A DNA stretch of 64,000 nt from Gemmatimonadota bacterium. Lineage in GTDB: Bacteria > Gemmatimonadota > Gemmatimonadetes > Palauibacterales > KS3-K002. The position numbers and the translations under genes are program-made. Under the pieces are notes generated by a model. That model did no database searches, was not told the origin of the DNA, and was given only the letters and a program-made list of their open reading frames with translations. Of this stretch, positions 54,391 to 56,478 are shown piece by piece (position 1 is the first letter of the stretch; every line of letters begins with the position of its first letter). Where the stretch lies: the NCBI GenBank assembly GCA_039586795.1, contig JBDHJS010000001.1, forward strand, positions 48,507 to 112,506. The letters run 5' to 3'.

Positions 54391-56478
54391 TTACACATCG
54401 AGGTTTTTCACGTATCGAGCGTTCTCCTCGATGAACTCACGTCGCGGCTCAACCTCATCGCCCATGAGTAGGGTGAAGAGTCGATCGGCGTCTACGGCGT
54501 CCTCCATGGTGACGCGGAGGATGGTGCGCCGTTCTGGATCCATCGTCGTCTTCCACAGCTGGTCCGGGTTCATCTCTCCCAGACCCTTGTAGCGCTGGAT
54601 ATCGGCCTTACCGTCTTTGCTGTCCTTGGTCAGGCGCTCAACGATCTGGACTCGCTCATCCTCGCTGTAAGCGTAGTGTTCCTCGCGTCCGCGTTTCACG
54701 CGATAGAGAGGCGGCTGTGCGATGTAGACGTAGCCGGCTTCGATCAACTGCCGCATGTGACGGAAGAAGAAGGTGAGCAGCAGCGTCCGGATGTGCGCGC
54801 CATCCACGTCCGCGTCCGTCATTATGATCACCCGGTGATAGCGGGCGTTGTCGATATTGAACTCATCGGAGCCGATCCCCGTCCCGACCGCCGTGATGAT
54901 GGTCCGGATCTCTTCGTTGGATAAGACCTTATCGAGACGCGCCTTCTCAACATTCAGAATCTTGCCGCGCAGCGGGAGAATCGCCTGGAAGTTGCGGTCC
55001 CTGCCCTGCTTGGCGGAGCCGCCGGCGGAGTCGCCCTCCACGAGGTATAGCTCGCTGACGCTCGGGTCGTTGAGAGAGCAATCGGCCAGCTTGCCCGGCA
55101 GGATCGATCCTTCCAACGCCGACTTACGTCGCGTCAGATCGCGCGCCTGACGGGCTGCCTCACGAGCGCGAGCGGCCTGCAAGCACTTGTCGATGATGCG
55201 TCGCGCGGCCGTGGGGTTCTCCCCCAGGAAGTTCGACAGACCTTCGTTGACGACGGACTCGACCGCACCGCGCACTTCGCTGTTGCCGAGCTTCGTCTTG
55301 GTCTGCCCTTCGAACTGCGGCTCCATGACGCGGACCGAAATGATGGCGGTGAGACCTTCTCGCACATCCTCACCGGTCAGCGTGTAGCTGGCTTTGCCCT
55401 TGCCCTTGAGCAGGCCAGCCCGACGAGCGTAGTCATTGAGCGTGCGAGTCAGCGCCGCCTTGAAGCCGGTCAGGTGCGTTCCCCCTTCGTGGGTGTTGAT
55501 ATTGTTGACGAAGGTGAACGTGTCTTCCTTGTAGCCGTCGTTGTACTGCAAGGCCAGCTCGATCTCGCACTCAGGGCGCTTGGCTTCCGTGTATATGACC
55601 TCGGTGTGGAGCGCCTTGCGGTTTCCACGCAAGTACTTCACGAACTCTATGATTCCGCCTTCGTACTGGAACTTGTTCTTCCGTTCCTGATCCTTCCGCT
55701 CGTCCTGCAGAGTGATCTTGACGCCGCGGTTCAGGAACGCGAGCTCCCGCAAGCGGACGGAGAGGGTGTCGTATTCGTACTCGAGCTCGGTGAAGATCTC
55801 GGGGTCGGGCTTGTACGAGACAATCGTTCCCGTCTCTTCTGTTTTGCCGGTGGATTTCAGCTCGCTCTTCTTCTTGCCGCGGCTGTATGTTTGACGCCAG
55901 ACTTTGCCGTCGCGATGGATCTCTACCTCTAACCACTCCGAAAGGGCGTTGACGACGGACACGCCAACCCCGTGCAGTCCACCGGAGACCTTGTACGAGT
56001 CTTTGTCGAACTTTCCGCCGGCGTGCAGCGTGAGCATCGCAAGCTCTACCCCCGGCACCTTCTCGGTGGGATGAGTGTCTACGGGGATTCCACGCCCGTT
56101 ATCTACCACCGTTACGGAATTGTCGCTGCGGATGGAGACATCTATGGTGTCGCAGTAACCCGACATCGCCTCGTCGATCGAGTTGTCCACGACCTCGTAG
56201 ACGAGGTGATGCAGGCCCCGGGCGGAAGTTGAACCGATGTACATACCGGGCCGCCGCCGTACGGCCTCCAGCCCCTTCAGTACCTGGATCTTCCCGGCGG
56301 TGTAATCGGCGCTCTTGCCCTTTCGGGCAGTCGACGTCTTCTGGGCCGCTGCCTTCTTGGCGGCCGGCTTCTTCGCAGCTGCCTTCTTGGTGGCCGCCTT
56401 CTTGGTGGCCGACTTGTTGGCCGCCGCCTTCTTGCTCGCGGCCTTCTTCTTCCCAGCCGCCGTTCGCTTTGCCATCAA
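54391..56478 (-). CDS. gyrB: DNA gyrase subunit B with N-terminal Lys/Ala-rich extension
   Basis: GHKL ATPase motifs ([14 protein letters not shown]), Toprim [15 protein letters not shown]; first ~55 residues [45 protein letters not shown]. Confidence 0.95.

Follow-up and report, generated by a model that had tools for sequence, protein, structure and literature searches.

A lysine-repeat tail at the N-terminus of gyrase subunit B in one large clade of Gemmatimonadota

Few molecular machines have been studied as well as DNA gyrase, which is also a major drug target. Lineage-specific accessory elements are known for this enzyme, one of them being an insertion in GyrB of E. coli. The acidic C-terminal tail and the second GyrA-box of M. 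tuberculosis GyrA are also species-specific appendages, which adjust wrapping, coupling and how the activities are balanced (PMC8216471). In the same article, a 2021 review on what distinguishes gyrases, the terms "N-terminal extension" and "N-terminal arm" do not appear (PMC8216471). The N-terminal "brace" of one GyrB subunit touches the nucleotide that is bound by the other subunit (PMC4159350). In human TOP2A and TOP2B, the N-terminal strap differs from species to species, both in length and in sequence, and measurably affects ATPase activity; the strap extension of TOP2B (residues 1–44) lowers this activity (PMC9592559).

Lysine-rich tails have been described for several bacterial proteins that act on DNA. 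The lysine repeats in the C-terminal domain of Streptomyces TopA, with the pattern K1-2(A/T/N)3-5, bind DNA, make the complex more stable and render the enzyme processive, and the DNA-binding proteins of GC-rich bacteria are enriched in lysine repeats (PMC5714199, PMC7398561). The tail of HupB is required for the interaction of this protein with DNA, and its lysines are targets of acetylation (PMC5676037, PMC7398561).

Here we analysed the gyrB gene on a 64 kb stretch of Gemmatimonadota DNA (the window, to which all positions refer). The encoded GyrB starts with a tail that carries the lysine-repeat theme on gyrase and for which we found no published description. In a full-text literature search no basic N-terminal tail on GyrB was found, although absence from such a search is no proof.

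The gyrB locus and its N-terminal extension

The features of the locus are collected in Table 1. The domains of the encoded protein follow each other in the order GHKL ATPase, transducer, Toprim and C-terminal domain, all above their gathering scores. The protein passed the NCBIfam equivalog for GyrB (TIGR01059, 1023.3 bits versus a cut-off of 882.4) and failed both equivalogs for ParE (parE_Gpos, 827 versus 900; parE_Gneg, 637 versus 723), and an identity as ParE was rejected. Judged by these scores it is a bona fide GyrB, as the original prediction had stated.

Table 1. Features of the gyrB locus and of gyrA in the window.
Feature	Position	Strand	Evidence and remarks
gyrB CDS, 694 aa + stop	54391..56475	minus	ORF, Pfam, NCBIfam; ATG at 56475
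GyrB tail, residues 1–57, Lys/Ala-rich	56305..56475	minus	sequence, codon usage, pLDDT, orthologues
imperfect tandem repeat in tail-coding DNA	56330..56448	minus	Tandem Repeats Finder
conserved N-terminal arm, Tyr58–Arg75	56251..56304	minus	alignment to solved GyrB chains
GHKL ATPase domain (HATPase_c)	55867..56223	minus	Pfam PF02518, E = 6e-18
transducer domain (DNA_gyraseB)	55138..55656	minus	Pfam PF00204, E = 3e-61
Toprim domain	54715..55053	minus	Pfam PF01751, E = 2e-19
GyrB C-terminal domain (DNA_gyraseB_C)	54427..54612	minus	Pfam PF00986, E = 3e-31
Shine-Dalgarno-like GAGGG	56482..56486	minus	sequence; 6 nt 5' of the gyrB ATG
dciA (DUF721)	56501..56914	minus	Pfam DciA, E = 2e-21; directly upstream of gyrB
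recF	56809..57939	minus	Pfam SMC_N/AAA and synteny; upstream of dciA
gyrA, 820 aa	22595..25057	plus	Pfam; NCBIfam gyrA equivalog passed; 29 kb from gyrB

The open reading frame (54391..56478) opens with a TTG at 56478, but the true start is the ATG at 56475–56473, one codon further in. An extension of about 55 residues had been predicted from this ATG; 57 residues are encoded, and the peptide is as quoted in that prediction. The Shine-Dalgarno-like motif ahead of the ATG has an equivalent, AAGAGGAAGAG, ahead of the ATG of the tailed orthologue L081. A gap of 25 nt separates the stop codon of dciA (56503–56501) from the gyrB ATG, and the order recF-dciA-gyrB is found in the window, in L081 and in the tail-less relatives L083 and L084.

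The first 90 codons of gyrB were scanned for other starts, with CTG and ATY included. No in-frame ATG, GTG or TTG is present between codon 1 and Met78. The scan gave only ATC63, CTG66 and CTG69, all of them within the conserved arm and without a Shine-Dalgarno sequence. Met78, as part of PGMYIG, sits within the conserved ATPase fold, and because no in-frame ATG, GTG or TTG precedes it, residues 1–57 must be translated. An internal start codon was thus ruled out for gyrB of the window, and with it the possibility, raised together with the prediction, of a GTG or TTG start near the conserved region. All 18 lysines of the tail are encoded by AAG (33 AAG and 8 AAA in the GyrB core), and GC3 is 0.84 in the tail versus 0.79 in the core, which agrees with the earlier view that the tail looks translated, with AAG and GCC codons typical of the genome. 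The tail is a translated, real feature of this GyrB.

Residues 1–57 comprise 18 Lys, 2 Arg, 21 Ala and a single acidic residue (Asp), which results in a net charge of +19. In the rest of GyrB, 95 Lys and Arg stand against 98 Asp and Glu. With the lysine frequency of the core (0.064), the probability of finding at least 18 Lys in 57 residues is 9e-9. A six-frame scan revealed the tail as the sole Lys-rich stretch in the 64 kb window, outside of which TopA, HU and the sigma factors of this genome lie. The tandem repeat in the tail-coding DNA has a period of 15 nt (5 aa) and 6.5–7.9 copies, or alternatively a period of 45 nt and 2.3 copies, and the 15-nt units encode KK-A-A-x. The peptide itself contains seven units of K(1-3) and small residues, in general KK followed by 2–4 small residues, the last unit being KKAAAQ. 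Four of the seven units fit the strict lysine-repeat pattern K1-2(A/T/N)3-5, and the other three contain S or P; the likeness to the C-termini of actinobacterial topoisomerase I that had been noticed earlier is borne out by these units. AlphaFold2 gave pLDDT values of 24–33 and no secondary structure over residues 1–80 of GyrB, and DSSP assigned coil to residues 1–69. The tail is therefore predicted to be intrinsically disordered.

The residues that follow the tail belong to the conserved N-terminal arm. Tyr58 corresponds to Tyr5 and Ile63 to Ile10 of E. coli GyrB (e.g., in 6rks_B, where query residues 56–200 align with chain residues 3–148). Among 45 sequences Y58, Q64–L69 and R73 are invariant, and I63 is present in at least 90%. 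Since Tyr58 aligns with E. coli Tyr5, the tail is an extension of the N-terminal arm by which the ATP gate is closed. None of the solved GyrB and ParE chains aligns N-terminal of query residue 48.

Distribution and conservation of the tail

The contig scan had missed the closest species (best identity 72%), and the clade was therefore analysed by a protein search. One clade of Gemmatimonadota, to which Ca. Palauibacterales belongs, provided 88 full-length orthologues, and every one of them carries the tail; this is the opposite of the absence from all relatives that would have spoken against the original prediction. The 68 distinct tails of the clade are 32–92 aa long (median 54.5), have net charges of +6 to +32, and show a median fraction of hydrophobic residues of only 0.04. 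Lysine makes up a median fraction of 0.27 of the tail versus 0.062 of the core, and acidic residues a median fraction of 0.02 versus 0.151. The tail is 33–58% identical to that of the window GyrB where the cores are 75–92% identical. The start MAKRSG and the junction of the tail to Tyr58 are conserved in the clade, and the lysines of the tail are retained despite the mutational bias of a genome with 62% GC. These data show that selection acts on charge and composition of the tail, not on its sequence.

In a neighbour-joining tree, the tailed GyrB proteins form one large clade and a smaller, separate pair, and the immediate sister clade is tail-less. The split between tail-less and tailed proteins had a bootstrap value of 97/100, calculated from core columns only. 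The tail is absent from this sister clade (Longimicrobiales-type) and from about 60 GyrB proteins of other phyla, and no cryptic tail was found upstream of the start in the tail-less relatives. These results show the tail to be a trait that one large clade of Gemmatimonadota has conserved.

That canonical GyrB lacks such a basic tail, as had been claimed, was confirmed with 79 GyrB loci from many phyla. These have 12–30 residues ahead of the IQVLK motif, which are neutral or acidic, and a basic stretch at this place was seen only in three other Gemmatimonadota (L004, L007 and L072). A few loci have longer, non-basic stretches that look like over-extended start calls. A phylum-wide survey of a representative library of 1.84 billion proteins returned mostly short metagenomic fragments; cluster membership added no taxonomy to them, and tblastn against the named loci gave rough affinities. 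In a further search, one family of GyrB-type fragments with a K/P/A-rich N-terminal tail had Actinomycetota as its closest named relatives. A separate origin of the tail on these fragments argues for an adaptive value.

Possible functions of the tail

We propose that the tail anchors the enzyme non-specifically to DNA at the N-gate. To this reading, which builds on position, charge and analogy, we assign a probability of roughly 0.55; it agrees with the function suggested in the original prediction, a tether to DNA or a modulator of T-segment capture. The gyrase heterotetramer would carry two tails, and each of them could extend up to about 20 nm (about 0.35 nm per residue), which would allow it to reach DNA anywhere on the enzyme. 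The tails would bind duplex DNA non-specifically through electrostatics, and the contact would raise affinity for DNA and residence time on it (processivity). Each tail is attached directly to the arm that, on closure of the ATP-operated N-gate, reaches over to the ATPase domain of the partner, and because of where the tails emerge they may favour T-segment capture or DNA stimulation of the ATPase at this gate. It is equally conceivable that a polycation placed there obstructs entry of the T-segment, or merely sticks to the G-segment. The nearest tested case of a lengthened N-terminal strap in a type IIA enzyme, human TOP2B, also speaks against a helpful tail, as ATPase activity is lowered there (PMC9592559). 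Most GyrB proteins function without such a tail, which makes it an accessory feature.

The tail may instead be regulatory or auto-inhibitory and tune N-gate closure or ATP turnover, not DNA affinity. This could happen by shielding of the ATP lid, by reversible acetylation of lysines, or by pairing with an acidic partner such as the C-terminal tail of GyrA. The attachment to the arm that completes the ATP site of the partner fits this idea, and the long strap of human TOP2B, which reduces ATP hydrolysis (PMC9592559), provides a precedent. The lysine repeats of HupB, Ku and TopA are acetylation targets (PMC7398561), and many GyrA homologues of Gemmatimonadota ("group 2", including those of Ca. 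Palauibacterales) have a long acidic tail at the C-terminus. However, this acidic tail is absent from GyrA of the window, where the GyrB tail is nevertheless fully developed, and no acetyltransferase or partner is linked to the tail. Moreover, non-specific binding of a polyanion should preserve charge and composition, as is seen here, whereas a specific docking site would be expected to conserve sequence. We consider a regulatory tail unlikely.

The partner subunit suggests a further reading. In E. coli and B. subtilis gyrase, the GyrA-box is needed for DNA wrapping, for DNA-induced narrowing of the N-gate and for DNA-stimulated ATPase activity. Alignment to the C-terminal domains of E. coli and M. 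tuberculosis GyrA showed that GyrA of the window has DNDGGRA in place of the blade-1 GyrA-box Q(R/K)RGG(R/K)G. Q.RGG.G was found at the blade-1 position in none of its 120 closest homologues, and all 18 GyrA proteins encoded beside gyrB in other lineages match the blade-1 box. GyrA of the window does have a consensus box, QARGGKG, near residue 730, a placement like that in blade 5 of M. tuberculosis. In the tail-less L083 and L084, gyrA was not found within 10 kb of gyrB, and no contig was seen with GyrA homologues of both groups. Gyrase could have been re-engineered in this lineage, with the blade-1 GyrA-box lost and the GyrB tail taking over the task of linking DNA binding to closure of the N-gate and capture of the T-segment. 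In subclades with an acidic C-terminal tail on GyrA, this tail and that of GyrB might then act as an electrostatic switch. We regard this reading as decidedly unlikely; if true, a type IIA topoisomerase would here present the T-segment by another architectural route.

Very improbable, in our view, is a role of the tail outside the catalytic cycle, either as a binding site for another polyanion (RNA, polyphosphate) or as a localisation or condensate tag that concentrates gyrase. In favour are the predicted disorder and the low complexity of the tail, and the example of AlgP, an H1-like protein of Pseudomonas that organises polyphosphate granules (PMC9239181). But the tail is fused to a DNA enzyme at its DNA entry gate, all lysine-repeat tails tested so far, whether on DNA enzymes or on nucleoid proteins, have DNA as their target, and no genes for polyphosphate were seen in the conserved neighbourhood.

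It is just as doubtful that the tail is a functionally neutral low-complexity expansion. Replication slippage in the tandem 15-nt repeats could generate such a stretch, and the wide range of tail lengths and the quick sequence turnover would be expected from it. Against this, the tail was kept in every full-length orthologue of the clade while the cores diverged to 71–75% identity, and it always has a high positive charge, almost no acidic or hydrophobic residues and an abundance of lysine that runs against the GC pressure. The conserved MAKRSG start and Tyr58 junction and the similar tails on Actinomycetota-related GyrB fragments also argue against neutrality.

That translation begins downstream and the Lys-rich stretch is a 5' leader is hardly credible: JGI gene calls (613/617 aa) begin at MYIGS and one NCBI call (P0019) cuts the tail off at an internal GTG, but a start at Met78, the first ATG, GTG or TTG after codon 1 in the window, would remove the invariant arm including the equivalents of Tyr5 and Ile10, the ATG is preceded by a Shine-Dalgarno sequence, and in 88 orthologues the reading frame is uninterrupted although their tails are rich in indels. 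Since some annotation pipelines trim or truncate the GyrB N-terminus in this way, the tail is partly hidden in databases.

Comparison with known systems

A conserved, polycationic and disordered tail on the arm of the ATP gate offers a natural experiment on the recruitment of DNA to the N-gate. None of the known accessory elements of gyrase is a basic GyrB tail, and none is located at the N-gate. The N-terminal strap of human TOP2A and TOP2B has the same topological position and also reaches across the ATPase dimer. The TOP2B strap extension differs in that it has 44–49 residues without a lysine repeat, carries phosphorylation and SUMOylation, and is reported to be inhibitory; a DNA-binding role is not established for it.

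With the C-terminal domain of histone H1 and with chlamydial Hc1 and Hc2, the tail shares a composition of K, A, P, S and T and the lack of acidic residues. The description as "histone H1-like" therefore holds for composition, but not for family membership: HC2 was the sole Pfam match of the tail and reached only 20.8–21.8 bits versus a gathering cut-off of 40, and neither Linker_histone nor an H1 globular domain was matched by GyrB in Pfam. Membership in the H1/Hc2 family was ruled out by the sub-threshold HC2 score, and there is no evidence of common descent. Mycobacterial HupB and Streptomyces HupS have disordered extensions rich in Lys and Ala (and Pro), as has GyrB here. They are, however, architectural proteins and not enzymes, and their tails serve compaction.

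By analogy, the lysine-repeat tail of actinobacterial topoisomerase I is the closest functional analogue of the GyrB tail. In TopA of Streptomyces and Mycobacterium, as in this GyrB, one or two lysines followed by 3–5 small residues (A/T/N) are placed on a topoisomerase of a GC-rich bacterium. TopA is a type IA monomer that carries the repeats at its C-terminus, whereas here they are found in another phylum at the N-terminus of a type IIA GyrB, on the arm of the ATP gate, and the two tails have no sequence homology beyond composition. The lysine-repeat theme of actinobacterial TopA, HU, Ku and sigma factors is now also seen on a type IIA topoisomerase of another GC-rich phylum.

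The gyrB gene and its start site

The Pfam domains of the gyrB product follow the order HATPase_c, DNA_gyraseB, Toprim, DNA_gyraseB_C. The protein scores 1023 bits against the gyrB equivalog of NCBIfam (a single-function family with a curated cut-off, here 882) and stays under both parE cut-offs. Every sequence feature tested places it in the GyrB family. Upstream of gyrB, Pfam identifies recF and dciA, the usual origin-proximal setting. The GC content of the window is 62.4%. The listed ORF begins at a TTG; the plausible start is the ATG one codon further inside, given a GAGGG motif 6 nt upstream and the N-terminal MAKR of the orthologues. 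The spacer between the dciA stop codon and gyrB comprises 25 nt and contains AAGAGGGA.

Coordinates of the genes and signals discussed in the text
Feature	Position	Strand	Remarks
gyrB ORF	54391..56478	minus	695 codons, from ORF lister, begins at TTG
gyrB start codon	ATG at 56475	minus	one codon inside the TTG: TTG ATG GCA AAG CGA...; plausible start
Shine-Dalgarno-like GAGGG	56486-56482	minus	6 nt 5' of ATG
dciA stop codon	56503-56501	minus	minus-strand sequence ...GGCGGTTGA
dciA (DUF721)	56501-56914	minus	between recF and gyrB
gyrA	22595-25057	plus	820 aa; passes NCBIfam gyrA equivalog, fails parC equivalogs
1044-aa protein	49611-52745	minus
Ser/Thr protein kinase	4559-7459	minus	966 aa; C-terminal TPR repeats (Pfam Pkinase E = 2e-43)

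The tail peptide quoted in the original prediction is exactly what the DNA encodes. Residues 1-57 comprise 18 Lys, 2 Arg, 21 Ala and 1 Asp, with a net charge of +19; the core of the protein (637 residues) is charge-balanced (95 K+R versus 98 D+E). At the lysine frequency of the core, the probability of finding at least 18 Lys in 57 residues is 9e-9, and this is the sole Lys-rich stretch that a six-frame scan picked up in the 64-kb window. The DNA encoding the tail repeats imperfectly in tandem every 15 nt (5 residues), with 6.5-7.9 copies, giving seven units of one to three lysines followed by 2-4 small residues. The original prediction had described its codon usage as matching the genome: AAG is used for 18 of 18 lysines, and GC3 in the tail (0.84) agrees with that in the rest of the gene (0.79).

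An internal start, which would have left the tail untranslated, was not found: a codon scan detected no in-frame ATG, GTG or TTG between codon 1 and Met78. This methionine (the M of PGMYIG) lies inside the ATPase fold, and a start there would therefore delete the invariant N-terminal arm. The only near-cognate codons before it (ATC63, CTG66, CTG69) are all within the conserved motif and lack a Shine-Dalgarno sequence. Gene callers disagree on the N-terminus of tailed GyrBs (orthologues P0001, P0019, P0066-P0075). JGI calls of 613/617 aa, which start with MYIGS and lack the conserved ATPase arm, are probably the same genes as the 692-aa NCBI calls that include the tail, since the contigs carrying them are equal in length. 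In the NCBI record P0019 the tail is trimmed at an internal GTG, and in P0008, from a contig as long as that of P0019, it is kept. The tail is present in public protein databases, yet only partly visible there.

Distribution of the tail among GyrB proteins

As relatives we considered the best 120 matches among 5.8 billion proteins, all of them GyrBs of the Gemmatimonadota type; among named proteins the nearest belong to MAGs of the Gemmatimonadota, the phylum of the window itself. Their N-termini fall into two classes. About 100 of these matches (71-92% identity) have a basic extension, usually starting with MAKRSGTGKKK and joined to the core at G(D/G). In the tail-less class (74-76% identity, with several members named Longimicrobiales) the conserved Tyr is preceded by just some 11 residues, e.g., MAKRQPNHNDY, and no cryptic Lys-rich frame was found upstream of gyrB in tail-less relatives. 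A neighbour-joining tree built on the core alone places the tailed proteins in one large clade, which includes a Ca. Palauibacterales protein, with the tail-less group as its sister (bootstrap 97/100 for the split); a second small tailed pair (locus L007 and protein P0105) falls elsewhere.

The basic tail, for which the original prediction had proposed a comparison with related genomes, is present in 88 full-length orthologues, representing 68 distinct tails of 32-92 residues (median 54.5). Median fractions are 0.27 for Lys (0.062 in the core), 0.02 for acidic residues (0.151 in the core) and 0.04 for hydrophobic residues, and the net charge ranges from +6 to +32 (median +18.5). The tails share only 33-58% identity with the window tail where the cores share 75-92%. 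Such quick sequence change and many indels, together with strictly kept charge and composition, would be expected for a disordered region under selection for bulk electrostatics. The retention of AAG-encoded lysine also opposes the GC bias of the tailed-clade genomes.

The order recF-dciA-gyrB is common to tailed and tail-less Gemmatimonadota (the window and loci L081, L083 and L084). The dciA-gyrB gap measures 25-45 nt in tailed genomes versus about 130 nt in tail-less ones. A tailed relative with a complete 4.8-Mb genome has the same synteny and a Shine-Dalgarno sequence before its ATG. The gene for the 1044-aa protein is also conserved as a neighbour at loci L081 and L082, where two to three genes separate its position from gyrB; its L081 orthologue has Tricorn-like/PD40 beta-propeller domains and an Omp85 domain. 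The window also encodes a Ser/Thr protein kinase (see table).

That canonical GyrB has no basic tail was borne out by about 60 loci from Bacteroidota, Bacillota, Actinomycetota, Krumholzibacteriota and other non-Gemmatimonadota, in which 12-30 neutral or acidic residues precede IQVLK, a motif that comes after the conserved Tyr. A wider search with residues 1-130 against 1.84 billion cluster representatives retrieved a scatter of GyrB-type fragments of metagenomic origin that also carry basic N-tails, so that the feature is not unique to the Gemmatimonadota clade. The N-terminal fragments P0124, P0397 and P0398 (GyrB-type or topo IV B-type, closest named relatives Actinomycetota) carry a K/P/A-rich tail of 58-67 residues unrelated to that of the window; others are P0135, P0168, P0187, P0199 and P0260. 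A basic N-tail seems to have arisen more than once, which argues that the feature is adaptive. The opposite feature was also seen: some GyrB fragments of other lineages (P0130, P0131, P0148, P0221, P0240) have strongly acidic extensions of 47-82 residues before the same conserved arm (e.g., 27 D/E versus 9 K/R).

The partner subunit GyrA

A recent review names the GyrA-box as the signature motif of gyrases: when it is mutated, wrapping and supercoiling are abolished, the DNA-induced narrowing of the N-gate is suppressed and DNA no longer stimulates the ATPase (PMC8216471). In an alignment of C-terminal domains with E. coli and M. tuberculosis, window GyrA has DNDGGRA at the blade-1 position of the E. 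coli box QRRGGKG; a perfect QARGGKG occurs around residue 730, in register with the second M. tuberculosis box. Window GyrA shows the ParC-like signature DGLKPVQRR, ends in QMSLQI and has no acidic C-tail. Q.RGG.G is likewise missing from the blade-1 position in all of its 120 closest homologues. These homologues form two groups. The first (67-100% identity) resembles window GyrA, and several members are on contigs equal in size to those carrying tailed gyrB. The second (P0324-P0396; 53-63% identity, 803-886 aa, signature KPVHRR) takes in Ca. Palauibacterales and the 'marine benthic group' and has no consensus GyrA-box anywhere; most members have a long acidic C-terminal tail ending in conserved Q-x-E-L-E-L. 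They may be orthologues from other subclades or paralogues of window GyrA. In 18 of 18 gyrB-adjacent GyrA genes of other lineages Q.RGG.G is kept at about residue 520, including L004, whose Gemmatimonadota lineage does not belong to the strongly tailed clade. No gyrA lies within 10 kb of gyrB in the tail-less loci L083 and L084. The probability that loss of the GyrA-box is connected with gain of a putative DNA-binding tail at the N-gate is low.

Attachment and possible role of the tail

All solved GyrB/ParE chains align only from query residue 48-69 onward. Residues 3-148 of E. coli GyrB (6rks_B) align with query residues 56-200, which equates Tyr58 with E. coli Tyr5 and Ile63 with Ile10. The N-terminal brace or arm of GyrB crosses the ATP-bound dimer and touches the nucleotide of the other subunit (PMC4159350), so the tail emerges at the N-gate and replaces the four residues before Tyr5. 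It is predicted to be disordered: in an AlphaFold2 model (45-sequence alignment) residues 1-69 have pLDDT values of 24-33 and no secondary structure. The arm is also of low confidence, as expected of a monomer model. The analysis shows that each subunit bears a translated polycation of about +19, predicted to be disordered and conserved throughout the clade, at the tip of the arm closing the ATP gate.

The original description as histone H1-like applies to composition and does not extend to membership of the H1/Hc2 families, which was rejected (HC2 21.8 bits versus a cut-off of 40, no globular domain). By sequence the tail fits the descriptive 'lysine-repeat' class. A full-text literature search of incomplete coverage turned up no GyrB described as having a basic N-terminal tail, and the phrases 'N-terminal extension' and 'N-terminal arm' are absent from a review of lineage-specific gyrase features (PMC8216471). 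Enzyme and tail type are each known; their combination and the position are undescribed in the literature searched, within that coverage.

The tail would bind DNA non-specifically. At about 0.35 nm per residue, 57 residues would span up to about 20 nm, and therefore the two tails could reach the G-segment, wrapped DNA or an incoming T-segment. We favour, with a probability of roughly 0.55, an accessory DNA anchor that would raise affinity and residence time and, from its exit point, might bias T-segment capture or DNA stimulation of the ATPase. The weight lies mostly on DNA binding and greater DNA engagement, and far less on the T-segment step. A rival explanation is a regulatory or auto-inhibitory element at the N-gate, in line with the extended N-terminal strap of human TOP2B, which reduces ATPase activity (PMC9592559). 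Alternatively, the tail binds another polyanion or serves localisation. A neutral repeat expansion would account for the tandem repeat; retention of the tail throughout the clade and its constrained composition speak against it. An annotation artefact is effectively excluded, since there is no alternative start codon.

The GyrB tail is worth testing for topoisomerase specialists, and current understanding is not overturned by it. With regard to an accessory DNA anchor, DNA-binding proteins of GC-rich bacteria are enriched in lysine repeats (PMC5714199, PMC7398561), and the interaction of HupB with DNA depends on its lysine-rich tail (PMC5676037, PMC7398561). Among experimental precedents the best is offered by the lysine-repeat stretch in Streptomyces TopA: its repeats, K1-2(A/T/N)3-5, are needed for DNA binding by the C-terminal domain, stabilise the enzyme-DNA complex and give processivity with the step rate unchanged (PMC5714199, PMC7398561).
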